Below the pieces are notes generated by a model. The model was given only the letters and a program-made list of their open reading frames with translations, searched no databases and had not been told where the DNA came from. A stretch of 59,955 bases of DNA from a virus. Lineage: Duplodnaviria; Caudoviricetes. The stretch's first letter is position 1; every line of letters starts with the position of its first letter. The stretch lies in the IMG/VR virus record IMGVR_UViG_3300047409_000695, positions 1-59,955 of that record. One strand, 5' to 3'. Of this stretch, positions 11,061 to 57,338 are shown piece after piece. A program made the translations under genes and the position numbers.

Positions 11061-11297
11061 TTACGAGACGTTGTCGTGCAGTGGTTGCACGGATGCCGAC
11101 AAACCGGGCGGTGTTCGGCACGTCAATCGGACGCGCACCGATTCGATATCGACCCGCACGCCGCGATCGGGAGACTCGACGCCGATCAGAATCCGGTCAC
11201 GAATCCAGTAGTAGATCGTGCGTCGCGACACGCCGAAGATCTCCATGCACTCTTCGATCAACAGCGTCGTGCGTGTGGTCCGCGAGATATCGATCAT
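11061..11297 (-). CDS. excisionase/MerR-like HTH DNA-binding protein
   Basis: EECMEIFGVSRRTIYYWIRD; ATGA-coupled to the portal. Confidence 0.7.
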   Translation of the reverse strand: MIDISRTTRTTLLIEECMEIFGVSRRTIYYWIRDRILIGVESPDRGVRVDIESVRVRLTCRTPPGLSASVQPLHDNVS

Positions 11298-20538: not shown

Positions 20539-21092
20539 CAGAACCCCAGATCCGGATCGACGCCGGTATCGACGCCTTTGACTACGACTGGCCGTTCAGC
20601 GCGATCGACGCGTTCGCCGTCATCACGCACTCCCGGAGCTTCCGGAGCGCTGCCGTCTGGTCCGCGCTCGGCGGTGTGTGCTCGAGCAGGATCTTGGCGA
20701 AGTCCTTCGCCGCCGTTCGAATCGCTTCGTACGACTGGGGCTGATCCCCCGTGGGCGGGTGATACGTGAACAGATTCTCGAGTCGCTCGGTCTCGGCCTG
20801 GCTCAGCACTCTGATCATTCGGCCCTCCTATGGGCTCGTACGTGAGTTCTCGGACGACGCGTTCGACGGGCGGCGTCACCACGATCGGAATTTCTCCGGT
20901 TGCAAGGACCGCGCGTTCGCCGGCGTCGTCGAGGTTGAGGTACGCCATGATCGCCTGGTCGACGACCCACGAACACGGCTTGTTCTGCTTCTTCGCGCAC
21001 GCCTTAACGGCCGGCCAGAACCGTTTCGCCACGCGGACGTTCACGTCTCCGGTCCGATCGACCGGCGCACTCTTCTTCCGGACCCGCTTCAT
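20538..21092 (-). CDS. RHH-like DNA-binding protein with long C-terminal tail overprinting 20582-20818
   Basis: VNVRVAKRFWPAVKACAKKQNKPCSWVVDQAIMAYL; start and stop both overlap the neighbouring genes. Confidence 0.5.
   Translation of the reverse strand: MKRVRKKSAPVDRTGDVNVRVAKRFWPAVKACAKKQNKPCSWVVDQAIMAYLNLDDAGERAVLATGEIPIVVTPPVERVVRELTYEPIGGPNDQSAEPGRDRATRESVHVSPAHGGSAPVVRSDSNGGEGLRQDPARAHTAERGPDGSAPEAPGVRDDGERVDRAERPVVVKGVDTGVDPDLGF
20582..20818 (-). CDS. Acb2/Tad1-like helical hairpin (candidate immune-signal sponge)
   Basis: NLFTYHPP..DQ..SYEAIR..AK.FA..L....P.SADQTAALRKLRECVMTANASIA; own GGAGG RBS. Confidence 0.7.
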   Translation of the reverse strand: MIRVLSQAETERLENLFTYHPPTGDQPQSYEAIRTAAKDFAKILLEHTPPSADQTAALRKLRECVMTANASIALNGQS

Positions 21093-23250: not shown

Positions 23251-23347
23251 CCGACCCGCCGCCCTTCCCGTCGTCCAGCATCCCCGCCACCAACAGCACA
23301 ATCAGAAAGACCACGACGACCGCCAGCGCGACCTGCAGGACCGTCAT
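23240..23347 (-). CDS. 35-aa single-TM peptide
   Basis: MTVLQVALAVVVVFLIVLLVAGMLDDGKGGGSDAD*. Confidence 0.55.
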   Translation of the reverse strand: MTVLQVALAVVVVFLIVLLVAGMLDDGKGGGSDAD

Positions 23348-23574
23348 TCCTGACTCGGCCGCTCGGCGCTGCGCGCGTCTTTTCCCGGCTCAGCCACCGA
23401 CGCCGGCTGCTCACCCGACCGATCCCTCAACGGCGACGCCATCCACGCCCGTTGCGCCAGATACCACCGCAACGCCGAGTCCACCAGGCCGGGCAACAGC
23501 ACCCCATCGCTCGCCGCCTGGCTCTTCATCTGCTGCCACACGACCTCATCCACCATCACGCTGACCGTTTTCAT
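23344..23574 (-). CDS. ribbon-helix-helix-like regulator, first gene of the leftward operon
   Basis: MKTVSVMVDEVVWQQMKSQAASDG...LVDSALRWYL. Confidence 0.6.
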   Translation of the reverse strand: MKTVSVMVDEVVWQQMKSQAASDGVLLPGLVDSALRWYLAQRAWMASPLRDRSGEQPASVAEPGKDARSAERPSQE

Positions 23575-23585
23575 GACCGCCGTGC

Positions 23586-23614
23586 ACTCTATTTGAACTT
23601 TCTTAAAAAGGCAA
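23586..23614 (-). promoter_or_regulatory. sigma70-type promoter
   Basis: TTGCCT-N17-TAGAGT in an AT-rich patch, 11 nt before the ATG at 23574. Confidence 0.65.
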
Positions 23615-23730
23615 GGCTCAGTCTGGAAAACCCCAGAAAAACACATGCGACTCCTGATAGCGCTCACGACCGCTGCCTTGGCCGGCCCCCGCAGACAATG
23701 CCCGCGGCTGCCTACCGTTGCGCACTTTTG

Positions 23731-24165
23731 CTCGAGCCTGCACGCCGGTGCACCGTTTGGCCCACGGTTGCACGGTTCGGCGCGTGGCTGCTCGAGGGTG
23801 CCCGCGGCGACCCGTCGCTGCGACATTCCGCCGACTATTGCCCAGGCCTGCACGCCGGTGCACACCCCGGCACACCGGCCGATCCGTGCGTGGCTATTCG
23901 GCCACACCGCACACCGGCCGAGCCGAGCTCGAGGCCTCGAGCCCCGAGCCGAGCCCCCCAGGCCTCGAGGCCGGCAAGCACGCGCGATCTTTGGCTACGG
24001 TGCGGTCCGACGTGCGGTCGGTCGGTCTCGAGGCCTGACGCGTCGACGGTGCGGTGTGCGAGCTCGAGGCCTCGAGGCCGGCCGCGTCGACGGTCCGACG
24101 TGCGGTCGTTCGAGCTCGAGGCCGGCCGCGGTTCGAGCTCGAGGCCTCGAGGCCGGCCGCGGTCG
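23731..24165. repeat. non-coding array of overlapping palindromes (GAGCTC/CTCGAG/AGGCCT/GGCCGGCC/CCGCGG) and short direct repeats
   Basis: 11 CTCGAG counted in 23731-24151; cggtccgacgtgcggtcg at 24003 and 24091; gagctcgagg(cctcgagg)ccggccgcg units. Confidence 0.85.
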
Positions 24166-24170
24166 TTGCG

Positions 24171-24211
24171 CGTGTTCCGATTTGTCATCTCGCGACACGA
24201 AAACGGAACAC
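24171..24211. promoter_or_regulatory. palindromic enhancer-like element, copy 1
   Basis: CGTGTTCCGATTTGTCATCTCGCGACACGAAAACGGAACAC; near-identical copy at 26924. Confidence 0.75.
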
Positions 24212-24273
24212 GGCCGCGGCGAGCCGGCGCCACGCCTGCCCGCGGTTGCACACCGCGGCGCACGACGACACCG

Positions 24274-24289
24274 CGGCACGGCCTCTGCT
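24274..24289 (+). promoter_or_regulatory. sigma54 (-24/-12) promoter 1
   Basis: CGGCACGGCCTCTGCT: GG at 24275-76, GC at 24287-88, compared with consensus TGGCACG-N4-TTGC. Confidence 0.65.
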
Positions 24290-24301
24290 CTGTATGTGGC
24301 C

Positions 24302-24523
24302 ATGGCGACGACGACACGGCATAGCGGGGATTGTCGGATGGCATTCGGCCGGCTTGATCCTGCGCACTGCGATCGTTGTCTCGAGCTCGCGAACGGTGCG
24401 AGGCCTCGCGAATGGGCGTCGACGCGTCGCAATCGCGACGATGCACGCCGGCTCGCCGAGATCCGCGCGCATAAGTGCACGTCGGCCGGTTGCGGTCCGG
24501 TGTGCACGTTTGGAGACTGGTAA
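24302..24523 (+). CDS. Cys/His-rich small early protein (73 aa)
   Basis: MATTTRHSGDC...HCDRCLEL..G...IRAHKC...CGPVCTFGDW. Confidence 0.65.
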   Translation: MATTTRHSGDCRMAFGRLDPAHCDRCLELANGARPREWASTRRNRDDARRLAEIRAHKCTSAGCGPVCTFGDW

Positions 24524-24525
24524 AC

Positions 24526-24678
24526 ATGAGCGAATACGTTCAAGTGACACTCGCGACGATCGCACTACTGCAGAAGTGCAACGGCGGTACGGTCGGCACT
24601 GGCGACATGATCGTGTTCCGGATGGTACGCCGGCTCGAACGTGAGCTAGACGCGTATCTGACAGGCGGTTCGGAATGA
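24526..24678 (+). CDS. hypothetical early protein (50 aa)
   Basis: GGAG RBS, MSEYVQVTLAT. Confidence 0.55.
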   Translation: MSEYVQVTLATIALLQKCNGGTVGTGDMIVFRMVRRLERELDAYLTGGSE

Positions 24679-24827
24679 TCCGCGCGTTGTCTCTTCTGCT
24701 CGGCCTGATCTGCATCGGCTTTGCTGGCTTGTTCGCGTACAACGGCCTGGCTGATTTCGCTCGAGCGGCGCTAGTCGAGGCCTTTTGTGTGGTGGTTATG
24801 GGCCAAGTGCTGAGGTACCCGAAGTGA
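24675..24827 (+). CDS. two-TM small membrane protein (50 aa)
   Basis: MIRALSLLLGLICIGFAGLFAYNGLADFARAALVEAFCVVVMGQVLRYPK*; ATGA/GTGA coupling. Confidence 0.55.
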   Translation: MIRALSLLLGLICIGFAGLFAYNGLADFARAALVEAFCVVVMGQVLRYPK

Positions 24828-25162
24828 GCTCACAAGCCGACCGGAACACCGCACACCGCGAAGAGCTCGAGACCGCAGGTATTACGATTACTGCACTCGA
24901 GCGATCGGAATGGTCCCGACTGGCGATCGACGCGTACCGGCTCGGCCTGACAGCCGTCGGCCATCGGTTCTCAGTAGCCGCGGCGACCGGCGTGCATATG
25001 CCGATCGCGCAATTCGACGCGTTACAGACGGAGTACCGCAGTTGGTTAACAGCCGGTTTCCCAGGCCTCGAGGCCGAAACCTTGCGAGCTCGGGAGACCC
25101 GCGGCGACGACACAAGTAAAGAGCTCGCACACTACCGCGCGAACCACGACACGAAAGGCTAA
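24824..25162 (+). CDS. hypothetical early protein
   Basis: GTG start coupled to the upstream stop. Confidence 0.6.
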   Translation: MSSQADRNTAHREELETAGITITALERSEWSRLAIDAYRLGLTAVGHRFSVAAATGVHMPIAQFDALQTEYRSWLTAGFPGLEAETLRARETRGDDTSKELAHYRANHDTKG

Positions 25163-25165
25163 CCG

Positions 25166-25495
25166 ATGGCCGAGCCGATTAGACACAAGGTATCCGGTTG
25201 GACACGCACGCCGGCCGGTTGGGGGAATTGGACGATCCGGCCGACCGATGGCACTGGCGATCGTGTCGTCGCGTTTCTGTCGGCCGGTACCTGGCAGAAC
25301 CTGCCAGGCGACGATCGCGCAAAGGCCGAGACCGATCGCGTAGTGCTGATCTCGGGAGACCCGTTACCCGACTGGGCCGTTACCTGGCTCGAGACCGCGA
25401 ACCGCAAGCAATGCACGCGAGCTCGCGAAGCCTTTCGCTCGGCTTTGGACGATGCAGACTGGGCCGACGATCGGCGTACGTTTGGAGACTCGTAA
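25166..25495 (+). CDS. hypothetical early protein
   Basis: 109 aa, operon packing. Confidence 0.6.
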   Translation: MAEPIRHKVSGWTRTPAGWGNWTIRPTDGTGDRVVAFLSAGTWQNLPGDDRAKAETDRVVLISGDPLPDWAVTWLETANRKQCTRAREAFRSALDDADWADDRRTFGDS

Positions 25496-25496
25496 C

Positions 25497-25818
25497 ATGC
25501 TGAAACGCGAAGAGCTTGCGATCTTGGACCGCGCGATCGGCGAGCCTCGGTTCTCAGTCGTATCTCGGCCCATGGTTAACCGAGGTACGCGCCGAAGTGG
25601 CGGCAATGATTACCTCAGATCTCGAGCCGGCTTTGATGCCGTCGGCCGCGGTCGCACAAGCACGCGCAACCGTCGACGAAGCCAAACGACTGGCCGAGCT
25701 CTTTCGAGCCGAGGCCGACAAGCACGCCGAACAGACCGCGGCAAACATGCGTAAACGCGTCGACGAATTTAGGACGCGTGCACGTCATGAGCTCGAGCGG
25801 GTAGCCGGTCAAATCTAA
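25497..25818 (+). pseudogene. early gene apparently split by a +1 frameshift near 25539-25546
   Basis: RBS+ATG frame MLKREELAILDRAI, continued in another frame as (A/E)LGSQSYLGPWLTEVRAEV...AGQI*. Confidence 0.5.
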
Positions 25819-25829
25819 CGGGAGATCTC

Positions 25830-26072
25830 ATGCTGATCATTGCTACTCGAGGTAAGCCGATCGTGATCCGTCGGACCGTCAAGCGACTGACGAAAGCGTT
25901 AGCCGGCCGGCGTGCACTCTTTCACGGGTACGACGGGAAAGAGTACGACTGCACGATCATGTCTGTTTTTCGCGGTACCGCCACGATTCACTACTACGTA
26001 CCAGGCCGGCCGGAAATTGTGACCGGCTACACAAGTGATCCGGCTCGGCTCGAGCTCGAGACACACGGTTAA
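25830..26072 (+). CDS. hypothetical early protein
   Basis: GGAG RBS, 80 aa. Confidence 0.6.
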   Translation: MLIIATRGKPIVIRRTVKRLTKALAGRRALFHGYDGKEYDCTIMSVFRGTATIHYYVPGRPEIVTGYTSDPARLELETHG

Positions 26073-26077
26073 CCGCC

Positions 26078-26410
26078 ATGCCGATCGTTATCCTGCACAC
26101 CGCAGAACCGCGGCCGGACGATCCGCCGTTCGATTTCGAGGCCTGGCAAGCACGCCGGCTCGAGCAACGACAAGCACGCCGGCTCGAGCTCGAGACCGCA
26201 CTAGCGGCCGGCAAGGTGGTATCCCAGGCGGGTACGTTCTGGACTGTCGACGCGGTTATTTCTACGCGGTTCGGTCCGGCCTCGAGCTTTCGGCCGTTCG
26301 TCGATCGGTGTATGCACGCCGGCTATCTGGCCGAGCACTTAGAGAACCGCGAAAACGGTTTCGGCTTCGACACGTTCATTCTGTCAACCAAGGGAGACCG
26401 CACACCATGA
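26078..26410 (+). CDS. hypothetical early protein
   Basis: 110 aa, contains an ARRLE tandem repeat. Confidence 0.55.
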   Translation: MPIVILHTAEPRPDDPPFDFEAWQARRLEQRQARRLELETALAAGKVVSQAGTFWTVDAVISTRFGPASSFRPFVDRCMHAGYLAEHLENRENGFGFDTFILSTKGDRTP

Positions 26411-26721
26411 AGATCAAGATCACGCTAAACGATCGTGGTAATCCGCCCGGCAAGGTAGCCGAGGCCGAACTACATTTCACGGACGGACCGTTAGCCGGCC
26501 TGAAACTGATCGGCTTTTCCATCTGGGAAACTCGCCAGTCGTCCGGCCTGAATGTCACGTACCCGGCTCGAACCTACAGCGTAAACGGCGAGCGGCGATC
26601 GTTTGCCTTGCTCCGTCCGACTGGCGACGCAACCGAGCAAAACCGTATCCGTAACCTGATCTGCGACGCGTACCGCGAAGAGCTCGAGCGGGTAAGCACG
26701 CCGGCCGCGGTGTCAGCATGA
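26407..26721 (+). CDS. SpoVG-like nucleic-acid-binding protein
   Basis: PPGKVAEAELHFTDGPLAGLKLIGFSIWE...NVTYPARTYSVNGERRSFALLRP...IRNLICDAY. Confidence 0.65.
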   Translation: MKIKITLNDRGNPPGKVAEAELHFTDGPLAGLKLIGFSIWETRQSSGLNVTYPARTYSVNGERRSFALLRPTGDATEQNRIRNLICDAYREELERVSTPAAVSA

Positions 26722-26921
26722 CACGACAAGCGGCGATCGACTGGGCGCGCAAACGTGCACGCCGGATTAACGCCGAAGTTTTCGTCATTTGGTCGGCCGA
26801 AGAGACCGATCCGCCTGGCGAGCACTACCAGACCGCAACCGACGAAGATCTAGCCGGCTTTTATCACGGTTGCGGCGAGCCGATCGCAGTCGTCCAACCG
26901 GACGGCACAATCGAGGCCTGA
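26718..26921 (+). CDS. hypothetical early protein
   Basis: ATGA-coupled, 67 aa. Confidence 0.6.
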   Translation: MTRQAAIDWARKRARRINAEVFVIWSAEETDPPGEHYQTATDEDLAGFYHGCGEPIAVVQPDGTIEA

Positions 26922-26923
26922 TC

Positions 26924-26964
26924 CGTGTTCCGTTTTGTCAAAACGGGACACCAAAACGGAACAC
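26924..26964. promoter_or_regulatory. palindromic enhancer-like element, copy 2
   Basis: CGTGTTCCGTTTTGTCAAAACGGGACACCAAAACGGAACAC. Confidence 0.75.
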
Positions 26965-27014
26965 AACCGAGCTCGAGGCCTGGTACCGGCGTGCACCGGC
27001 GTGCAGTTGTGAGC

Positions 27015-27030
27015 CGGCACACCGAATGCA
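27015..27030 (+). promoter_or_regulatory. sigma54 (-24/-12) promoter 2
   Basis: CGGCACACCGAATGCA: GG at 27016-17, GC at 27028-29; ATG at 27043. Confidence 0.65.
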
Positions 27031-27042
27031 ATTACCTCGAGC

Positions 27043-27249
27043 ATGAAGCCGACCTATGAGATCACCGACCGCAACCACTTCGCGGCGATCGTTCGGACCG
27101 CTCGAGCGGCGCGTACGTTGATCTCTTACGGTCGACTGCCGAATTTCGGCCGGTCGATCATTACGACCGACTACCGCGCGATCTTCCCGTATTGGAACCC
27201 CAGACCGCCGATGAACATTCACCGTACCACCGGAGATCAGAACCGATGA
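27043..27249 (+). CDS. hypothetical early protein (no SD, probably leaderless)
   Basis: 68 aa, starts about 2 nt after the predicted sigma54 TSS. Confidence 0.55.
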   Translation: MKPTYEITDRNHFAAIVRTARAARTLISYGRLPNFGRSIITTDYRAIFPYWNPRPPMNIHRTTGDQNR

Positions 27250-27731
27250 AACCGACAAGCACGCCGGCGCCAGGCCTCGAGCCGATCCATTGCCCAAAAT
27301 GCCGGCATACCTGGACACCGCGGCCGGCTCGAGTTCGCAGGTTCCGAGTACCTAAGGCCTCGAGCTCGAGGCCGGCCGCGGTAAGCACGCCGGCCGCGGT
27401 CGACACGGCCGCTATGTCGACCGCCGATCTTTTAAAGCACTTCAAGCAAACGGCGCCGCTTGAAGATGTTCGGTTCATGCTGAAACACGCGCGTATGTCG
27501 GCCGGCTTGCGGTTCGCGTTCGAAGTACTCGAGGCCTCAATTCTCGAGCTCAGAATACGCAACCGAGCGGACATCTACCGCGAGTACTCGAGCCTGCAGC
27601 AGATTTGGCGCCATGAGTCCAACCGGTACCACTGGGCGATCGGTTTCCTGGCGCAATTCGTCCCGACCATGCCGGCCGATCGGTTGCTGCCGGCCGCACC
27701 GGCCGAGCTCGAGGCCGAGGCCGCGGCGTGA
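27246..27731 (+). CDS. hypothetical protein with CPKCRHTWTPR half zinc ribbon
   Basis: ATGA-coupled; GGAG RBS. Confidence 0.6.
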   Translation: MKPTSTPAPGLEPIHCPKCRHTWTPRPARVRRFRVPKASSSRPAAVSTPAAVDTAAMSTADLLKHFKQTAPLEDVRFMLKHARMSAGLRFAFEVLEASILELRIRNRADIYREYSSLQQIWRHESNRYHWAIGFLAQFVPTMPADRLLPAAPAELEAEAAA

Positions 27732-27825
27732 GTGCACGCCGGCCGGCCTCGAGACCCCACGATCCGCACTGCACTTGTAAAGGCCGCTCGAGCCGTACGC
27801 CAGGCGATCGGCTACACGTACGCCG

Positions 27826-28050
27826 ATGACAAGATCACGTTCTAATCGAGGCCGGCTCTTACGGTTTCCGCCCGTCGGCGGTACGCACTGGGCGCCAGGC
27901 CGTACGCTTTGCAGGCAATGCGGCGATCGGTTTACCCGGCTCGGAACGTGCCCGGACTGCGAACGCGGCCGGCTTGCCGATCTTCGAGCTCGAGGCCAAC
28001 TAGACCCGCTACCACTTCCGAAGCTCAAACGACGGAGATCCGCCCGATGA
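27826..28050 (+). CDS. small Zn-finger protein
   Basis: CRQCG...CPDC. Confidence 0.5.
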   Translation: MTRSRSNRGRLLRFPPVGGTHWAPGRTLCRQCGDRFTRLGTCPDCERGRLADLRARGQLDPLPLPKLKRRRSAR

Positions 28051-28154
28051 CGGCCGAAACGATCGCCTATCTGCTGATTCTGTTCGGCCTGGGGGGCGGT
28101 CTCGCACTGCTCGAGACCGAACCGCCAGCCCGCAAACGGAGATCGAAACGATGA
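28047..28154 (+). CDS. 35-aa TM peptide with basic tail
   Basis: MTAETIAYLLILFGLGGGLALLETEPPARKRRSKR*. Confidence 0.5.
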   Translation: MTAETIAYLLILFGLGGGLALLETEPPARKRRSKR

Positions 28155-30124
28155 CGTCTTCCGCTACGTATTCGCCTGATGACAACAAATTGCGGTTGTA
28201 CGCCAGTCAGCGCTTAGACGCCGAGGACTACGCCCGCGTCAAGGCTGCCGGCTTCAAATGGGCGCCACAACAAAAGATCTTCGTGGCTCCGATGTGGACT
28301 CCGGACCGCGCCGATCTTTTGCTCGAGCTCGCCGGTGAGATCGGCGACGAAGATACAAGCCTGTTAGACCGCGCCGAGGAACGGGCCGATCGTTTCGGCG
28401 ACTACAGCCAAAGCCGAAAGGCCGACGCGGTGTCAGCCGAAAACGCCGTTGATCGGATTGCTGGCGGTATTCCGTTCGGGCAACCGATCCTAGTCGGCCA
28501 TCATTCCGAACGGCACGCCAGGCGCGACGCCGAGAAGATCGAAAACGGTACCCGCCGAGCGATCAAGATGTGGGAAACCGCGAAGTACTGGCAGGACCGA
28601 GCGGCCGGCGCCATTCGGCACGCCAAGTACAAAGAGCGGCCGGACGTTCGGCACCGTCGGATCAAGGGTATCGAGGCCGATCGGCGGAAGTCTGACAAGT
28701 ACGTGACTGAGGCCCGCGGTTGGATCAAGGCCTGGGCTCAGTTGAATCACCCGTACAAAGACGGCCGGCCGGCTGACGATGACCTGCGGCAAAAGCGCGC
28801 GGAGTACATCGCGAACTATTCCCACATACATCTAGCGGCCGGCCCTGATCGACCGTTCGGCGACTCGCTATGGTCGGCCCTGGACAAGCGCACGATCACG
28901 CCTCGAGCGGCCATGCTGATCGCGCTGAAGTGTCACGGCCGGACGATCAAAGCGAACCGCCGATGGCTCGAGCACTACGACAACCGGTTAGCGTACGAAC
29001 GCGCGATGCTCGCCGAGGCCGGCGGACTGGTGACCGACCGAACCGCGTACCCGATCGTTCCTGGCGGACGCGTCCTTATCCGCGGTCAATGGCTGATGGT
29101 TTACAAAGTGAACCGCTCGAACGGCGCGATCTCGAGCGTCACAACGCAGCCGACGAAAGACGGCGGATACAGTCGGCGAGCCATCTGGCAGATCGAAAAC
29201 ATCAAGGACTATCAGCCGCCGACCGACGCGGCCGACATCAAGACGGCGAAGGCCTCGACGAAGCAACCGCCGATCGTGAATTACCCGGGCGACGGCTTCC
29301 GACCGATGACCGCGGCCGAGTTCAAGGATGCACAGAAATTCCAGTCGACCGGCTACACCGTGATCAAGGCGACCGCGACGCACGCCGCACACCGGCAGCG
29401 CTACCGAATCCGCGGCGGCGAGTACATCTACCTGTTCATTACCGACGCCAAGGTCGTAGAGCGGCCGTTACTGGACGACACACCGACACCGCCCGATCCG
29501 CCTAAACGGGTCTACGCCGAGACTCCCGAGCCGGCGCCGCGGCCGTACGTGCCAGCACCCGAGACCACTCGAGCCGAAGAGCTCCGGAACAGCATCAAGG
29601 GGGGCGTGCAAGTGGTCTCGGCCCCGCAACTGTTCCCGACGCCGGCGCCAGTCGCTGAGAAGATGGCCGAGCTCGCCGACCTGCAAGACGGCTTGTGCGT
29701 GCTCGAGCCGTCGGCCGGCACGGGCAACCTCGTTGCCGCAGTCCTCGATCGGGTCGATACCGAGGTACTCGCGTACGAGATCAATTCCGAGCTCTGCAAA
29801 CAGCTTGCGAAGAAGTGGCCATCGTTCAAGCTGCAGGTTCGGCGAGCCGATTTCCTCGAGGTCACGGATTACCAAGGGTGTTACCCGCGGATCCTGATGA
29901 ATCCGCCCTTTGTGAACGGGTCCGACATCAAGCACATACAGCACGCGCGTACGTTCCTGGCGCCTGGCGGTGTGCTGGTCTCGGTCTGCGCGGACGGACC
30001 GCGCCAGCGTGAACAACTGATGCCCGAGGCCGAGGCCTGGATCCCGTTGCCGGCCGGCTCATTCGCCGACCAGGGCACCAACGTCAACACCGCGATCGTG
30101 ATCTTCACACGTCCAAAGGAGTAG
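28151..30124 (+). CDS. DUF3560 domain fused to amino (N6A/N4C-type) DNA methyltransferase
   Basis: ATYSPDDNKLRLY...GFKWAP...GQPILVGHHSERHARRD (DUF3560); VLEPSAGTG (motif I) and ILMNPPF (motif IV). Confidence 0.85.
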   Translation: MTSSATYSPDDNKLRLYASQRLDAEDYARVKAAGFKWAPQQKIFVAPMWTPDRADLLLELAGEIGDEDTSLLDRAEERADRFGDYSQSRKADAVSAENAVDRIAGGIPFGQPILVGHHSERHARRDAEKIENGTRRAIKMWETAKYWQDRAAGAIRHAKYKERPDVRHRRIKGIEADRRKSDKYVTEARGWIKAWAQLNHPYKDGRPADDDLRQKRAEYIANYSHIHLAAGPDRPFGDSLWSALDKRTITPRAAMLIALKCHGRTIKANRRWLEHYDNRLAYERAMLAEAGGLVTDRTAYPIVPGGRVLIRGQWLMVYKVNRSNGAISSVTTQPTKDGGYSRRAIWQIENIKDYQPPTDAADIKTAKASTKQPPIVNYPGDGFRPMTAAEFKDAQKFQSTGYTVIKATATHAAHRQRYRIRGGEYIYLFITDAKVVERPLLDDTPTPPDPPKRVYAETPEPAPRPYVPAPETTRAEELRNSIKGGVQVVSAPQLFPTPAPVAEKMAELADLQDGLCVLEPSAGTGNLVAAVLDRVDTEVLAYEINSELCKQLAKKWPSFKLQVRRADFLEVTDYQGCYPRILMNPPFVNGSDIKHIQHARTFLAPGGVLVSVCADGPRQREQLMPEAEAWIPLPAGSFADQGTNVNTAIVIFTRPKE

Positions 30125-30127
30125 ACC

Positions 30128-30355
30128 ATGAGACCGAATCGATCCCGCATTGCCCTGGCTGCCGTCCTGCTCGCCGTCCTGGCCTCGAGCGCCGTTGCTC
30201 AGTCGAAGGTGTACGTGTCGGCGAGCGGGAAGAAGTACCACACGCACGCCGACTGCCGAGCGCTGAAGTCCTCGACGGTCAAAACGATCGACCTGAAAGA
30301 CATCGGCGATCGGACGCTTTGCGCGATCTGCGCACACCGGAAAGCCGGCAAGTGA
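30128..30355 (+). CDS. secreted small protein with KYH...C...CxxC metal-binding domain
   Basis: signal peptide ...SSAVA|QSK; VYVSASGKKYHTHADCRAL...CAIC. Confidence 0.7.
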   Translation: MRPNRSRIALAAVLLAVLASSAVAQSKVYVSASGKKYHTHADCRALKSSTVKTIDLKDIGDRTLCAICAHRKAGK

Positions 30356-30901
30356 TCCGCCGACTCCGTATCGGCTCGAGGGACTCAACACACGTCGTCG
30401 ACCTGTCGTGGGCGGGCTGGATTTCCTGCCAGGAACTTGACCGCGTCAAGGCCCTGGCCGTCGACGAAACCGCGATCAATGTCACGTTTCGATCGGGAGC
30501 CGGCAAAACGAACATGGACGTAACACGACTGGCCGACGACGCCGAGCTCTCCCGGTGAACGACACGATCCGAATCGAGTACGACCGCGGCCGGCAGCTTG
30601 TGAACCTGATGATGGGGAACTACTGCATTGATCAGATGACGATCCGGCAGTACGAAGGCATCTTCGGGCTGATGGCCGCGGTCGACCTGGCGAGGGACCG
30701 ATGAATCTCGACGAAGTGATCCGACTGATTACCGAGGCTTGGCCACAACGGTACACTCGAGGCCGGTTGACGCACATTCACCGGAACGCCGTGAAAACCT
30801 CGAGCGGCGCGACGGTGCACTTGCGGGTCATGATCCAAACGATCGACGAAAGCCCGAACCCTGAGCCGACTCCCCCAAGGAAGATCGTGACTGAGCTATG
30901 A
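30352..30901 (+). CDS. three small coupled ORFs (30352-30558, 30555-30704, 30701-30901)
   Basis: GTGA/ATGA overlaps. Confidence 0.45.
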
Positions 30902-31173
30902 AGACCCTATTTGTCGCCTTAGCGCTGGCTCGAGCTCTCGACGCGGCGAGTACGTGCGATGCGCTGAGTCGCGGCGCGACGGAACGTAACCCCTTGGTCG
31001 CCGGCGGTTCGTGTAAGGCCTCGATCGTCTTCGAGGCCGGCGTGACAACCGGGCAAACGATCGCCCTGCACTCGTTGAACAAGACGCACCCGAAGATTGC
31101 GAAAACCCTGGCGATCGTGTCCATCGCCGTCGAAGGCTGGATGATCGCGCACAATTCCCAGGTCAACCGATGA
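30898..31173 (+). CDS. DUF5658-like membrane protein
   Basis: LDAAST...L.RGATERNPL motif plus hydrophobic helices. Confidence 0.6.
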   Translation: MKTLFVALALARALDAASTCDALSRGATERNPLVAGGSCKASIVFEAGVTTGQTIALHSLNKTHPKIAKTLAIVSIAVEGWMIAHNSQVNR

Positions 31174-31409
31174 ATCCACTACTCGAGACGCCGGCTCTTC
31201 GCGACATGCGTCAGATTGCCTCTGATATCGGGCTGTCGGGCCGCGTGCGAGCCATTCTCGAGTGTCAACGCCATCACACCGGCCGGTGCGATCTGTGTAT
31301 CCACCGCGCCGAAGAAGCCTTGATCCTTCTGGGCGTACCGCCCGAACAGACTCGGCTGATCGGCCGGCTCGAACAACTCGAGCCGGGCGACGTCGATCCA
31401 CGCGACTAA
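31170..31409 (+). CDS. hypothetical protein (C/H-rich)
   Basis: CQRHHTGRCDLC. Confidence 0.5.
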   Translation: MNPLLETPALRDMRQIASDIGLSGRVRAILECQRHHTGRCDLCIHRAEEALILLGVPPEQTRLIGRLEQLEPGDVDPRD

Positions 31410-33828: not shown

Positions 33829-34275
33829 TCAAGCGATTCGAACAGGCTCGGCGACGTTCGCCACTTCCATCGTCATCGGTTCCTTAGCTAAGGAAGCCGC
33901 GGCGACCAGAGCGACGAAGGCCTCGAGCGCGGCGCGGGAATCGATCAGGCCGGCGCCGTTCCGTGTGCCCGTGGCGACACACCCGAGTAGTTGCATGGCC
34001 CGGTTCGCGGCGTGCACGCGGATCCCGACGCGCGGGTCTTCCGTGATCAGGTGATGGTCGGGCACGATGATTTCCGGTAGCCGGTACTGCGGGTCCGGCG
34101 TCCAGAGCTCGCCTTTCGCGGCGCGCGCAGAGACCGTGAACAACATCGCGAAGACGCCGAGCGGAATCCGTTTCGAGGTCCGCTCGAGGCACGCGCAGAA
34201 CTTCCGGTCGTTCACGTACAGATCCCCAGGCAACGACTCGCCGTCGGCCGGCAACCTCTCGACTCTGACGATCAT
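33829..34275 (-). CDS. DUF5675-family protein (candidate endolysin)
   Basis: GDLYVND.KFC.CLE...IP.G...R.GIRVHAAN...LLGCVATG...SRAA. Confidence 0.75.
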   Translation of the reverse strand: MIVRVERLPADGESLPGDLYVNDRKFCACLERTSKRIPLGVFAMLFTVSARAAKGELWTPDPQYRLPEIIVPDHHLITEDPRVGIRVHAANRAMQLLGCVATGTRNGAGLIDSRAALEAFVALVAAASLAKEPMTMEVANVAEPVRIA

Positions 34276-35681
34276 GTGAGCTCCACAAGGAAAGCGTCTT
34301 GCCGGAACGAGTTCCCTTCCCAGGCCGCGGCGCCGGCGTCCGCCCCCAAGGTCTTTTCCCAGTTCGACGTGAACAGGCACCACTTGCCGTCAGGCGACAC
34401 CTGGGGTTTCGGCAGGTACCAGTAGCCGTAATTCCCGTTCGGGTTGACGTCGGACGCGATGTTCGAGCGGTGATGACAGAACCGATACACGACGGTCGGA
34501 CCGACGCGGGTCTCGATCGCCACGATCTCATCGTCCCATTCCCGCCAGGCGATCAGGTTGTTCCCGTAGTACCGGTAGTTCCCGACGAACACCGGCAGCA
34601 AGGCGCCCGGCTTCGCGTTCCACCAGGACATATGGTTGCTGATTTGGAAATTCGTCGGCTTCGGGTACGGGGTAATCAGTTCCCGCACGCTGTTGACCGT
34701 GAGGTAGTCCCGGAACAGGGTTTCCGCGCCGTCGTTGTCGTCCGGGCTGTTGATCCCGCACGCAAAGCCCGCGGCCCCATGCCCGCCGTTTTCCGTCGTC
34801 ACGGGCGTAATCGTGCCGGCCTGGGTATCCCAGAGGTACGCCGGAATGACTTTCGGGTTCGCGGCCATGCTCGCCGACGACGGGCCGAGCCACACGTACC
34901 GGCCGGTGAGGTCGATCCCGGCAAAATGCAGCTTCGTCGACGGAATCCGCGCGTCGTTCAACGTGTCGAGCACTCGGATCTTGTTCTGGTCGAGTGAGAG
35001 TCCATCAGCCGACAACCCCGCGCAGAGCACGTAATGGTCGTCATCCTGCGACTGCCCGCCGAAGAGCGCGATCAGGACGTTGTTCCGGACGGCGATCCCC
35101 CGCGCGTACGTCCGCGGGTTCAACAGGTTGACGCTCGAGGGAAGCAACGTCTGCAGTTGCACCACGTCCTTGACGGTGCCGGCCACGGCTTCCCAGGCGG
35201 CAACGGTGGGCGCCGGATTCGCCCCGCCGACGTTCCGACTGACACGGCCGTACGCCAGTACGCCGGCGTCCCCGAAGTCCGGCTCGGTCTCGAGCGGCGC
35301 GTCGATCAACATCGACGCCTGCATCGAATCCGGGTTGAGCTTGAACGATCGGTTCGTCCCGCCCGTGGTCGTCAGGACGAATGTTCTCGAGTCCGCGGCC
35401 CAGCATCGGCCCGTCGACGGCGTCCGGAACGACGACCCGCCCATGCTCTTGTCGTCGGTCACTCGCAAGATCCGCTGACCGAACGTCGGGTCGGGAAAGA
35501 TGAACCCGGCCGGCCCGAGCGACGGCCGAGCCGGCTTCGGACGAACGATCCGATCCGTGATGGCTTTCGGATACGGCACGACCGGTGCAGATGGCAGCAT
35601 CAGCGCGATCGTTTCGGCATCGGCCTGGATAGTCAGGGCGTTTGTTTGAATGCGGGCAAGCAGCGTCTGGGGGGTATCCAT
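34272..35681 (-). CDS. beta-propeller (TolB/PD40-like) protein
   Basis: DPTFGQRILRVTD...WAADS...PQVSPDGKWCLFTSNW; ATG 35681 lies after a TAAGAT -10. Confidence 0.6.
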   Translation of the reverse strand: MDTPQTLLARIQTNALTIQADAETIALMLPSAPVVPYPKAITDRIVRPKPARPSLGPAGFIFPDPTFGQRILRVTDDKSMGGSSFRTPSTGRCWAADSRTFVLTTTGGTNRSFKLNPDSMQASMLIDAPLETEPDFGDAGVLAYGRVSRNVGGANPAPTVAAWEAVAGTVKDVVQLQTLLPSSVNLLNPRTYARGIAVRNNVLIALFGGQSQDDDHYVLCAGLSADGLSLDQNKIRVLDTLNDARIPSTKLHFAGIDLTGRYVWLGPSSASMAANPKVIPAYLWDTQAGTITPVTTENGGHGAAGFACGINSPDDNDGAETLFRDYLTVNSVRELITPYPKPTNFQISNHMSWWNAKPGALLPVFVGNYRYYGNNLIAWREWDDEIVAIETRVGPTVVYRFCHHRSNIASDVNPNGNYGYWYLPKPQVSPDGKWCLFTSNWEKTLGADAGAAAWEGNSFRQDAFLVELT

Positions 35682-35689
35682 GGCGGTGG

Positions 35690-35719
35690 ATCTTACGCCC
35701 GCCGGTCTTGAAAGGACAA
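35690..35719 (-). promoter_or_regulatory. sigma70-type promoter, leaderless
   Basis: TTGTCC-N18-TAAGAT, 8 nt before the ATG at 35681. Confidence 0.5.
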
Positions 35720-35723
35720 CGTG

Positions 35724-35879
35724 ATGCCAGTCACCGTGGTCGCCCTGTTCGTTCTGATAGCGCTCTTCTGCACGATCGCGCACTTATGTGGATACCGACC
35801 GATGCAGTCGCTGGGCGTCGCCGTCCTTCTGCTCTGTGTCGTAGAACTGCTGAAGTTCTATCCCGCCGGCGGGCACTGA
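35724..35879 (+). CDS. 51-aa two-TM membrane protein, opposite strand
   Basis: AAAGGA RBS; MPVTVVALFVLIALFCTIAHLCGYRPMQSLGVAVLLLCVVELLKFYPAGGH*. Confidence 0.6.
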   Translation: MPVTVVALFVLIALFCTIAHLCGYRPMQSLGVAVLLLCVVELLKFYPAGGH

Positions 35880-46777: not shown

Positions 46778-46917
46778 TACTTCGTTCCTTTCGGGACGTT
46801 CCACTTCGGCGACTTACAGTTCGGGCAGACGTAGACGGGCGCCTTTCGCGGAATCCACGAATGGTCGCAGCGTTTGCAGTGCATCGTCGGAATGATCGGC
46901 GTGTCCGACTTACTCAT
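46777..46917 (-). CDS. 46-aa zinc-ribbon protein, first gene of the replication operon
   Basis: MSKSDTPIIPTMHCKRCDHSWIPRKAPVYVCPNCKSPKWNVPKGTK*; below the ORF-track cutoff. Confidence 0.7.
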   Translation of the reverse strand: MSKSDTPIIPTMHCKRCDHSWIPRKAPVYVCPNCKSPKWNVPKGTK

Positions 46918-46924
46918 GCGGAAG

Positions 46925-46954
46925 ACTATACGGATGATGATACGGAAGTGTCAA
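46925..46954 (-). promoter_or_regulatory. near-consensus sigma70 promoter (leaderless) with direct repeats
   Basis: TTGACA-N18-TATAGT, 7 nt before the ATG at 46917; atacgga twice around the spacer, cggaagtgt at 46943 and 46976. Confidence 0.75.
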
Positions 46955-56027: not shown

Positions 56028-57338
56028 TTACGAAATCTGCTGTATCGAACACTCGTGGTTGTAAACGGCCGTGCTCGGCGTCCCTGTCGTGGACACCGTG
56101 ATCGCCGTCGCCGCCTGGGCACGGATGACGATCGGGACGCCGTAGTAGCCGACCGTTCCCGCGGCCGTCAGCACGTTCGTCACCGTCCCGCCTGCCGCCA
56201 ACTGCCATACGACCGCCACTGACCGCGCCGTGCCTTCCTCTGTCTTGAACGCAATCGTGCCGTTCATGTTCGTGGCGGCGCCCGCGGTCGTGACAAGGAT
56301 GTAGTCCCAGACCTCAAACGTGCCGTCGGCGGCTGGGGTAAAGGTGCAACGGTTGGCGTCGAGTGAACTGGTGATGGCGACGCCGCGACCACTCTGTAGG
56401 ACGTACGGTACGCCGGAACCGGTCGTCGTCAGGTTGTTGTAGGCCGTGATCTTCGCGCCGATATCTAGGTTGCCGGTGCCCGCGGTCAACGCTCGGCCGC
56501 GGAGCTTCAGCGTGCTGTCTGTCGCTACATCGATCCCGATGCCGGCCGCGCCAGCCCCGTTCGACATGACGAGTTGGCCGTCAGTCGCGCCGTTGAGCGC
56601 CCACGTAAATTTATTCGTGCCGCCGCTCTGTAGATGCAACGTGGCGCTGTTGAACCAGACGTTCGACCCGTCCATCGCGATCGGCTGATTACCATTGACG
56701 CACAACCGCTGCGTCGTCCCATCCCACGACAGCCCACCGTTCAGGGCACCAATGAACGCGTAAGAGGTCGCCGCACAGTTACCGCTGGCGATGGCTTGGA
56801 CCTGACCGCTATTGGCCATGAGCAACCCGGTAGAGTTGATCCTGACCCGCTCGCCAGCGATGCCGTCCGTCGTGTTCGTGAAGAACCTTGTGCTACAGCC
56901 AGTTGGAGTCGCCGAGAAGCACGACACGATGTCCCAGCCAGGAGTACCGTTCGTACAGCCGACGCCGCAGTTGTCGTACAACGTCGCCCGTTGAGGCTCA
57001 GTAGTGACGTTGAGACCTTGAGCCGAGATACACCCAACCGAAGTGTCTGACCTGAAACACCCTTCCGCGGACGCCGCGTTGCCCGCGTTATTGTTCCACC
57101 ACAAAAACTGCACGTTGCTGTTCTGGTTGAAGACCGCGCTGAACGGGTGCCCAGCGTCCGGCGTGCCCGCCCCCATCTTGATAAAGGTGCCGACGTTCAA
57201 CGTCGTGAATGAGATCGAGCCCGTCCGGAGCAGGTTCCAAAACTGCTGAATCTGGGCCGTGAACGTCTGCGCGTGCAGGTCGACGCCGGCAACCAATAGA
57301 CCGATCAAGACCGCGAGTACGAATCGACGCTTCGTCAT
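56028..57338 (-). CDS. tail-fibre/spike-like protein with Sec signal peptide
   Basis: MTKRRFVLAVLIGLLVAGVDLHA|Q; ERVRINSTG fibre motif; ten Cys. Confidence 0.7.
   Translation of the reverse strand: MTKRRFVLAVLIGLLVAGVDLHAQTFTAQIQQFWNLLRTGSISFTTLNVGTFIKMGAGTPDAGHPFSAVFNQNSNVQFLWWNNNAGNAASAEGCFRSDTSVGCISAQGLNVTTEPQRATLYDNCGVGCTNGTPGWDIVSCFSATPTGCSTRFFTNTTDGIAGERVRINSTGLLMANSGQVQAIASGNCAATSYAFIGALNGGLSWDGTTQRLCVNGNQPIAMDGSNVWFNSATLHLQSGGTNKFTWALNGATDGQLVMSNGAGAAGIGIDVATDSTLKLRGRALTAGTGNLDIGAKITAYNNLTTTGSGVPYVLQSGRGVAITSSLDANRCTFTPAADGTFEVWDYILVTTAGAATNMNGTIAFKTEEGTARSVAVVWQLAAGGTVTNVLTAAGTVGYYGVPIVIRAQAATAITVSTTGTPSTAVYNHECSIQQIS

Follow-up and report, generated by a model that had tools for sequence, protein, structure and literature searches.

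Duplicated palindrome-box-ATG cassettes as possible sigma-54-type promoters of the rightward genes of a soil phage

The two rightward transcription units of a soil phage of the class Caudoviricetes, known from the IMG/VR virus record IMGVR_UViG_3300047409_000695 (59,955 bp, analysed over its full length and hereafter called the window), each begin with the same composite element, a cassette that consists of a three-unit palindromic array, a GG-N10-GC box and an ATG without a Shine-Dalgarno sequence. Judging from the blocks that its two copies retain, this cassette is a real, duplicated and constrained module, and the copies look like paralogous enhancer-type promoters that start both rightward units. 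The favoured reading, with a probability of about 0.4, is that the cassettes are near-leaderless promoters of the sigma-54 type that depend on a host activator. This is the best single explanation because, of the known promoter classes, only -24/-12 fits the bipartite element, its spacing, its distance from the start and the dyad array about 100 bp upstream, and because the phage uses another promoter class elsewhere. The probability is not set higher because the match to the consensus is not exceptional, comparative support is nil, and a ribbon-helix-helix (RHH) protein is encoded, and operator-like repeats are found, in the same region. The elements of the two cassettes are the following.

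24171-24211, no strand assigned: palindromic array A1 (motif A) of the divergent control region, made up of one inverted, one degenerate direct and one direct unit of 13 bp each
24274-24289, plus strand: -24/-12-type box 1, CGGCACGGCCTCTGCT, with GG at 24275-24276 and GC at 24287-24288, two mismatches to TGGCACGNNNNTTGCW
24302-24523, plus strand: first gene of rightward unit 1, whose 73-aa product is rich in Cys and His and belongs to a conserved phage family; ATG without Shine-Dalgarno
26924-26964, no strand assigned: palindromic array A2, geometry as in A1, beginning 3 nt past the stop codon of the gene at 26718-26921
27015-27030, plus strand: -24/-12-type box 2, CGGCACACCGAATGCA, with GG at 27016-27017 and GC at 27028-27029
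27043-27249, plus strand: opening gene of rightward unit 2, an ORFan of 68 aa (third-position GC 0.74); ATG without Shine-Dalgarno

An earlier sequence-only reading of this DNA had reported a 41-bp palindrome at 24171 and 26924, and both copies are indeed present base for base. The arrays form a repeat family of 46 nt with 83% identity. Each 41-bp copy is built of three units of 13 bp, namely an inverted GTGTTCCGwTTTG, a direct CAAAACGGGACAC or degenerate unit, and a direct AAAACGGAACAC, with the half-sites GTGTTCCG, CG(C/G)GACAC and CGGAACAC and with centre spacings of 19 and 13 bp in both copies. The 11-mer AAACGGAACAC, with at most one mismatch, occurs seven times in the window (1.08 expected; none of 100 shuffles reaches seven), and five of these occurrences are inside A1 and A2. 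The centres of the arrays lie about 109 bp (A1, cassette 1) and about 97 bp (A2, cassette 2) upstream of the predicted +1, which is the typical range of enhancers, and the difference of 12 bp keeps the phase. An extracytoplasmic function (ECF)-type promoter that would draw GGAACA-N17-GTT from an arm of the palindrome was also considered and rejected, there being no -10 partner.

The downstream boxes, too, are as that reading had described them. The GG and GC doublets are exactly 10 bp apart in both (GGCACGGCCTCTGC, 24275-24288; GGCACACCGAATGC, 27016-27029), the GG begins 64 positions past the end of the array in cassette 1 and 52 positions past it in cassette 2, that is, about one helical turn apart, and each of the ATGs at 24302 and 27043 follows the C of the GC by 14 nt. 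When the cassettes are aligned, the only conserved parts are the palindrome, a GC-rich block, CGGCAC, TGC and the ATG. The spacing CGGCAC-N6-TGC-N13-ATG is identical in both, copy 2 lacks 12 bp, and the remainder has diverged; this divergence in between is a sign of selection on the blocks and on their spacing.

The pattern GGCAC-N6-TGC alone is not enriched in the window (six matches on both strands vs 2.85 expected, with 10 of 100 shuffles reaching six). Two of the six matches are located 52 and 64 nt past the arrays, on the coding strand and 14 nt before gene-opening ATGs. At a rate of about 2.4e-5 per position and strand, the estimated chance of finding this pattern within 100 nt downstream of both arrays on the right strand is about 6e-6. 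Judged by sequence, no other known promoter class suits the core as well as -24/-12 does.

Neither ATG is preceded by a TAnnnT box, and a consensus scan of the region 23300-27400 yields no sigma-70 sites. A GGAG-type Shine-Dalgarno is likewise lacking at both 24302 and 27043, as the sequence-only reading had stated; such a sequence is found at 7 of the 14 listed starts of the plus-strand block (24526, 25497, 25830, 26407, 27246, 28151 and 30128), and the start at 24824 has GAGG. The start at 24302 is backed by a homologue (P0124) that begins at the same residue, and the ORFan at 27043 carries a strong coding signal. With the predicted leaders of 0-2 nt, the mRNAs would be essentially leaderless.

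Elsewhere in the window, the phage employs ordinary promoters. The sequence TTGnnn-N17/18-TAnnnT located 7-11 nt before an ATG is found four times, compared with 1.35 expected, and 3 of 100 simulations reach four. Three operon heads, all on the minus strand and including the divergent leftward operon, have such a promoter.

23586-23614, minus strand: sigma-70-type promoter TTGCCT-N17-TAGAGT, 11 nt before the ATG at 23574, within one of the five AT-rich islands of the window
35681-35719, minus strand: sigma-70-type promoter TTGTCC-N18-TAAGAT, 8 nt before an ATG
46917-46954, minus strand: sigma-70-type promoter TTGACA-N18-TATAGT, 7 nt before an ATG, followed by a 46-aa zinc-ribbon open reading frame (ORF)

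The promoter at 35681-35719 places the start of the 503-aa ORF annotated at 34272-35783 probably at 35681. By their layout, these three promoters imply leaderless or near-leaderless mRNAs transcribed from host-type promoters. Because the same phage uses TTGnnn-N17/18-TAnnnT at these operon heads and the cassettes lack the TAnnnT box, the rightward cassettes stand out as a distinct promoter class.

The sequence-only reading had placed the cassettes at the head of the early genes, a label that is probably wrong for the rightward block because the leftward operon, with its ordinary promoter, the RHH gene in first position and an anti-defence gene further on, would be the immediate target of the host polymerase; the three minus-strand operons headed by ordinary promoters are likely to be read first. 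In this leftward block, an ORF at 20582-20818 (minus strand) matches the Acb2/Tad1 hairpin domain with 54 bits, above the cut-off; Acb2 and Tad1 are sponges of cyclic-nucleotide defence signals.

The same reading had noted that the phage encodes no activator of its own. The ATPase domain of bacterial enhancer-binding proteins (bEBPs; PF00158) has no match in the record, with a control that is positive in 14 of 14 genomes, which bears out this statement; the sigma-54 DNA-binding domain (PF04552) and sigma-70 regions 2 and 4 also have no match in the record, their controls being positive in the expected genomes. Thus, of the proposal that a host bEBP gates infection through sigma-54, the module, the core, the enhancer distance and the lack of a phage bEBP or sigma factor stand; it has gained no comparative support, and it had overlooked the RHH gene of the phage.

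Under the sigma-54 reading, host sigma-54 RNA polymerase would dock on CGGCAC-N6-TGC and form a closed complex, which a host-supplied AAA+ activator bound to the three-unit palindrome about 100 bp upstream would open. Transcription would start 0-2 nt before the ATG, and the resulting messages would be translated as leaderless mRNAs. The phage RHH protein, made from the ordinary sigma-70-type leaderless promoter across the control region, would probably modulate the cassettes, either via the GC-rich 10-bp repeats that lie between each promoter and its enhancer or via the palindromes. The binding steps, the transcription start and a host with rpoN are all inferred. A more elaborate scenario, rather unlikely as a whole, is that of a lytic soil phage in which a 7-kb block including a DNA methyltransferase gene would stay silent until a host enhancer-binding ATPase is active, would then be transcribed by sigma-54 polymerase into leaderless messages, and would be held in check by the RHH protein, produced immediately from its ordinary promoter and acting as an anti-activator on the repeats that lie between enhancer and promoter.

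The cassettes share several features with the classical sigma-54 promoters activated by NtrC at glnAp2, NifA at nifH and PspF at pspA, namely the GG-N10-GC core, a site of dyad symmetry some 100 bp upstream and an activator encoded away from the promoter, with the two copies phased about one helical turn apart. Unlike these systems, the cassettes are carried by a lytic-type phage that has no activator gene, and they are known here from sequence alone; the phage boxes have C rather than T before GG; the upstream element comprises three 13-bp units (centres 19 and 13 bp apart) instead of a 16-18-bp dyad; and the predicted start is only 0-2 nt before the ATG. With the leaderless sigma-70 promoters of GC-rich bacteria and their phages, in which TAnnnT is located 6-9 nt before the ATG, the cassettes have in common a unit-heading ATG without a Shine-Dalgarno. 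That layout is used by the phage itself at 23574, 35681 and 46917 and by the related contig L124, whereas the two cassettes carry GG-N10-GC and no TAnnnT box.

Several observations weigh against the sigma-54 reading, beginning with the boxes themselves. Measured against the extended consensus TGGCACG-N4-TTGCW, box 1 matches at 10 and box 2 at 9 of the 12 informative positions, and both have C in place of T before GG. The window holds 10 sites with no more than two mismatches vs 7.99 expected, so the boxes are unremarkable as consensus matches. In their favour, no other listed consensus site unites an ATG, a distance of 13-15 nt and an intergenic position.

Comparative searches add to these objections. 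The strict form of the palindrome pattern occurs in none of the viral contigs, and it was found in 3 of 185,579 representative genomes and in five metagenome contigs, in no case beside activator genes. The check proposed by the sequence-only reading, a search for the motif in related phages and next to bEBP genes, thus lends it no support. Among 401 Planctomycetota genomes, the palindrome is present in five, compared with six for the reversed control. In 80 viral loci that encode relatives of the DUF3560-methyltransferase of rightward unit 2 (935 kb), GGCAC-N6-TGC occurs at the background rate (21 matches on the plus strand and 19 on the minus strand), with only 3 of the 40 matches followed by an ATG 10-18 nt downstream, and in contig L001, the closest methyltransferase relative, a private motif of another kind is repeated ahead of the first genes. 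The family of gene 24302 is represented in 36 viral homologue loci, and in the 32 of these where the start can be assigned, a similar box is seen once (AGGCACGTTCAGTGC in L130), 1 nt farther from the ATG and with AGGAAGG between them. In the closest homologue, L124 (72% identity), a TATATT-type box, TGGTATATT, located 6 nt before the ATG constitutes an ordinary leaderless promoter. None of these homologue loci has another plus-block gene in common with the window. Conservation of the GG/GC spacing in relatives, the lack of which the sequence-only reading had named as a refutation, is not seen at orthologous positions, and it is not demonstrable because no relative carrying the cassette is present in the collections searched. 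Finally, an RHH-type gene, identified by transitive homology, belongs to the same control region as the cassettes.

The strict-pattern matches themselves proved to be of other kinds. Hairpins, terminators or nested palindromes resembling repetitive extragenic palindromic (REP) elements account for the match in the genome contig L004 and for those in the metagenome contigs, none of which is kin of the phage. The two other genome matches, L002 and L003, are mobile elements of Planctomycetota. In L002 (Pirellulales), a 117-aa gene has on either side, at 930-973 and 1347-1387, a copy of the form AAGTGTTCCG(A/T)TTTG...CGGAACACTT whose outer ends are 37 bp apart, and the contig resembles a mobile element with a helicase-like gene. 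In L003, an element from Anaerohalosphaeraceae, a palindrome nearly identical to that of L002 is located at 996-1032, upstream of an HTH_17 gene. A Planctomycetota host or regulator was considered and abandoned: no protein is common to L002 and L003 or to either of them and the phage, TerL has no match in the 401 genomes, and the palindrome occurs at the control rate. The groES genes of Planctomycetota do carry sigma-54 boxes (e.g. TGGCACGAGGGTTGC in L025), without the A1/A2 palindrome. A relaxed pattern retrieved two viral contigs with TGTTCCG arrays, L015 and L016, which have no protein in common with the window and were set aside as unrelated. In both of these (65% and 44% G+C, respectively), inverted TGTTCCG(C) arrays surround a spacer of about 100 bp, at 7060-7300 in L015 and at 7950-8220 in L016; one of the arrays lies between primase-helicase and small-terminase genes and the other beside an integrase gene.

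The principal alternative involves the divergent control region, which separates the first leftward gene from the first rightward one by about 730 bp (23575-24301), compared with the 400 bp implied by the longest ORF. Apart from A1 and the leftward promoter, the following features belong to this region or to cassette 2.

23344-23574, minus strand: first leftward gene, encoding a 76-aa RHH-type protein (P0126), a candidate binder of motif A or motif B
23739-23752 and 23849-23862, minus strand: motif B, present twice without mismatch at a distance of 110 bp, in non-coding DNA of the leftward region
24003-24130, no strand assigned: 44-bp tandem repeat in 2.9 copies with CTCGAGGC runs on its flanks, situated between A1 and the leftward region
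24246-24266, plus strand: GC-rich block TTGCACACCGCGGCGCACGAC, which resembles motif B and is tentatively assigned to it, roughly between -54 and -34 of cassette 1
26982-27005, plus strand: motif B in cassette 2, 2.4 tandem 10-bp units (GGTACCGGCG, TGCACCGGCG, TGCA), at about -59 to -36

Motif B, TGCACCGGCGTGCA, has three exact copies, two in the leftward non-coding region and one in cassette 2. With up to two mismatches, the 14-mer occurs five times against 0.95 expected, and 1 of 100 shuffles reaches five; the 10-mer TGCACCGGCG alone is not enriched in the window (15 matches vs 11.5 expected). The 44-bp tandem repeat could represent origin iterons or further protein-binding sites. The assignment of the 76-aa protein goes through a relative: the only relatives retrieved from 1.84 billion representatives include P0128 (E 3.9e-5), with each of whose three repeats P0126 aligns, and P0128 matches the Pfam families ParD (37.2 bits), Omega_Repress (34.4) and FitA-like_RHH (30.1), all above the cut-off. 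Pfam has no direct match to P0126, and sequence searches of the PDB with P0126 and P0128 return nothing informative; the monomer model of P0126 has two helices at low confidence (mean predicted local distance difference test score 65.8). By transitive homology, the protein is assigned to the RHH DNA-binding proteins.

A phage-controlled switch without sigma-54 is a real possibility, in which the palindromes, the TGCACCGGCG repeats or both would be operators of the RHH protein encoded at 23344-23574 or of another early phage protein. CGGCAC/TGC would then be a non-canonical promoter read by the host RNA polymerase after its activation or modification by the phage, as with middle and late promoters, and the likeness to -24/-12 would be that of a look-alike. 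RHH proteins such as Arc, Mnt, omega and CopG bind arrays of short direct or inverted repeats, and this known habit suits the region, where the RHH gene heads the divergent operon behind an ordinary promoter, 10-bp units of motif B stand in tandem between about -36 and -59 of cassette 2, two more copies of the motif occur leftward, and the promoter of the RHH gene itself has a one-unit variant of motif B overlapping its start region. The private motif repeated in the related contig L001 suggests that such sites are phage-specific rather than host-wide, the palindrome is unenriched in every genome set searched, and the TG of the TGC box falls at the extended -10 TG position if +1 is the A of the ATG. 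Known RHH switches (Arc/Mnt of P22, the omega repressor of pSM19035, CopG) likewise combine a small RHH gene at a divergent control region with short repeats, in direct and inverted arrays, near promoters. Their operators, however, overlap the -35 to +1 region of sigma-70 promoters, whereas the phage palindromes are located about 100 bp upstream of the start, far for a repressor operator. Moreover, the hexamers after TGC (TCTGTA and AATTAC) lack the A-11/T-7 pair that the ordinary promoters of the phage keep, CGGCAC at -28 to -23 matches no -35 position, the RHH call is transitive, Pfam having missed the 76-aa protein, with a low-confidence model, and binding is suggested by motif geometry only. 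The sequence-only reading had itself named a phage RHH repressor on the palindrome as what would undo its proposal; an RHH-type gene is present, and its binding to the palindrome is a candidate interaction only.

Two other explanations are less probable than such a switch. It is improbable that the phage infects a GC-rich host without sigma-54, the cassettes being a phage-specific early or middle promoter class that merely resembles -24/-12. GC-rich phyla such as Actinomycetota typically have leaderless starts with TAnnnT boxes, the phage has three starts of this layout and a G+C content of 63%, and conserved early promoters of the Streptomyces phage phiC31 are reportedly located near conserved inverted repeats bound by its repressor. 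This explanation is countered by the kinship of the phage: no actinophage appears among the TerL, capsid and portal matches despite the heavy sampling of actinophages, the SU10-type adaptor and P22-type portal matches point to phages of Gram-negative hosts, and the nearest cultured kin infect Acidobacteriota. Even less credit is due to the idea that the palindromes are structural hairpins, acting as terminators or insulators between units, with a box-ATG spacing that has no promoter role. Both copies fold as RNA (-20 to -23 kcal/mol, with -20 for A2), A2 follows a stop codon at 3 nt, and most of the database matches to the pattern are terminator-like hairpins. The z-scores of the folds are only -1.8 and -2.2, however; neither copy is followed by a U-tract or T-run and A1 has no plus-strand gene upstream, so that A1 and A2 are not plain terminators, and a terminator scan lists neither array. 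The conserved CGGCAC-N6-TGC-N13-ATG would also be left unexplained.

The record comes from soil metagenomes and has a 127-bp direct terminal repeat, about 63% G+C and a CheckV completeness estimate of 78%; three soil DNA runs gave contigs that are near-identical or partial. According to third-position GC, nearly all genes are on the minus strand, with a single 7-kb plus-strand block at 24302-31173, in which rightward unit 1 covers 24302-26921 and rightward unit 2 covers 27043-31173 and includes the DUF3560-methyltransferase fusion gene (28151-30124), whose product is widespread in phages and plasmids (more than 3,600 relatives). Identified structural and packaging genes encode the terminase, portal, major head protein and SU10-type adaptor, and those of DNA metabolism encode DnaB, an SbcC-like ATPase, a PD-(D/E)XK nuclease and a RecT-like protein. 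Searches of 20 small ORFs from the plus block and its neighbours against PHROGs and Pfam gave nothing useful. Among 50 further ORFs, the sole helix-turn-helix match in Pfam is at 11061-11297 (24.8 bits, below the cut-off), and this ORF has no similarity to the HTH_17 protein of L003.

A blastn comparison of the window with 50,697 phage records yields no match. In the same records, the only matches of TerL, capsid and portal are to Tunturi_1 and Tunturi_2, phages of Tunturiibacter (Acidobacteriota), at 28-30% amino-acid identity; the named hosts among 37 TerL matches are all Gram-negative, with no actinobacterium. Acidobacteriota possess rpoN. DnaB as a query finds no kin in viral contigs, and only generic helicase clusters in the Atlas. 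The divergent region of Tunturi_1 has AT-rich promoters of the TTGACA type. One perfect TGGCACCAATATTGCA is located inside gp85 of Tunturi_1 (L117, about 7010; minus strand, position 57010 of PP887698.1), with a DNA methyltransferase gene about 335 nt downstream of it and about 0.1 such matches expected by chance in that genome; this TGGCAC-N5-TTGCA is probably fortuitous.

Several further patterns were noted in and around the rightward block. The hexamer CTCGAG occurs 174 times in the genome compared with 110.7 expected from shorter words, and 53 of these occurrences are in the 7.3-kb stretch 23900-31200, where palindromic hexamers are very dense; CTCGAGGCC runs and GGCCGGCC cluster in the control region. 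The sequence AAGCACGCC, mostly as AAGCACGCCGG, is found six times in the window, always on the plus strand of the rightward block (25720-27390) and in different genes. The gene junction ACGTTTGGAGACT(G/C)GTAA(A)CATG is shared by 24507-24528 and 25478-25499 in the window and by 760-784 in the related contig L124; at these junctions, the codons for the C-terminal TFGDW or TFGDS of the upstream gene double as the GGAGA ribosome site of the next. The ATG at 25497 (plus strand) has a good GGAGA site, but its frame ends at 25754 with poor third-position GC, and the frame at 25516-25818 (plus strand) is better coding and lacks a good start; this discrepancy over 25497-25818 may be due to a frameshift or an assembly error.

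The sequence-only reading was not aware of a description of this architecture for phage early genes, and literature searches, with the supplements of papers outside their scope, likewise found no description of sigma-54-driven early or middle phage genes with a host activator. The part of a paper on a Pectobacterium phage that bears on the subject concerns a putative sigma-54-like protein, not promoters (PMC7693777).

If the RHH protein runs the switch, this would be an ordinary phage regulatory region, and GG-N10-GC look-alikes in GC-rich phages would be insufficient for calling sigma-54. If, conversely, the sigma-54 reading is true, part of the phage programme would depend on a signal-transducing ATPase of the host, a host-sensing strategy that is hardly documented for phages. 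The phage would then read a physiological signal of its host through the sigma-54 system without encoding any of the parts of that system, and sigma-54 would join the promoter classes that yield leaderless mRNAs.

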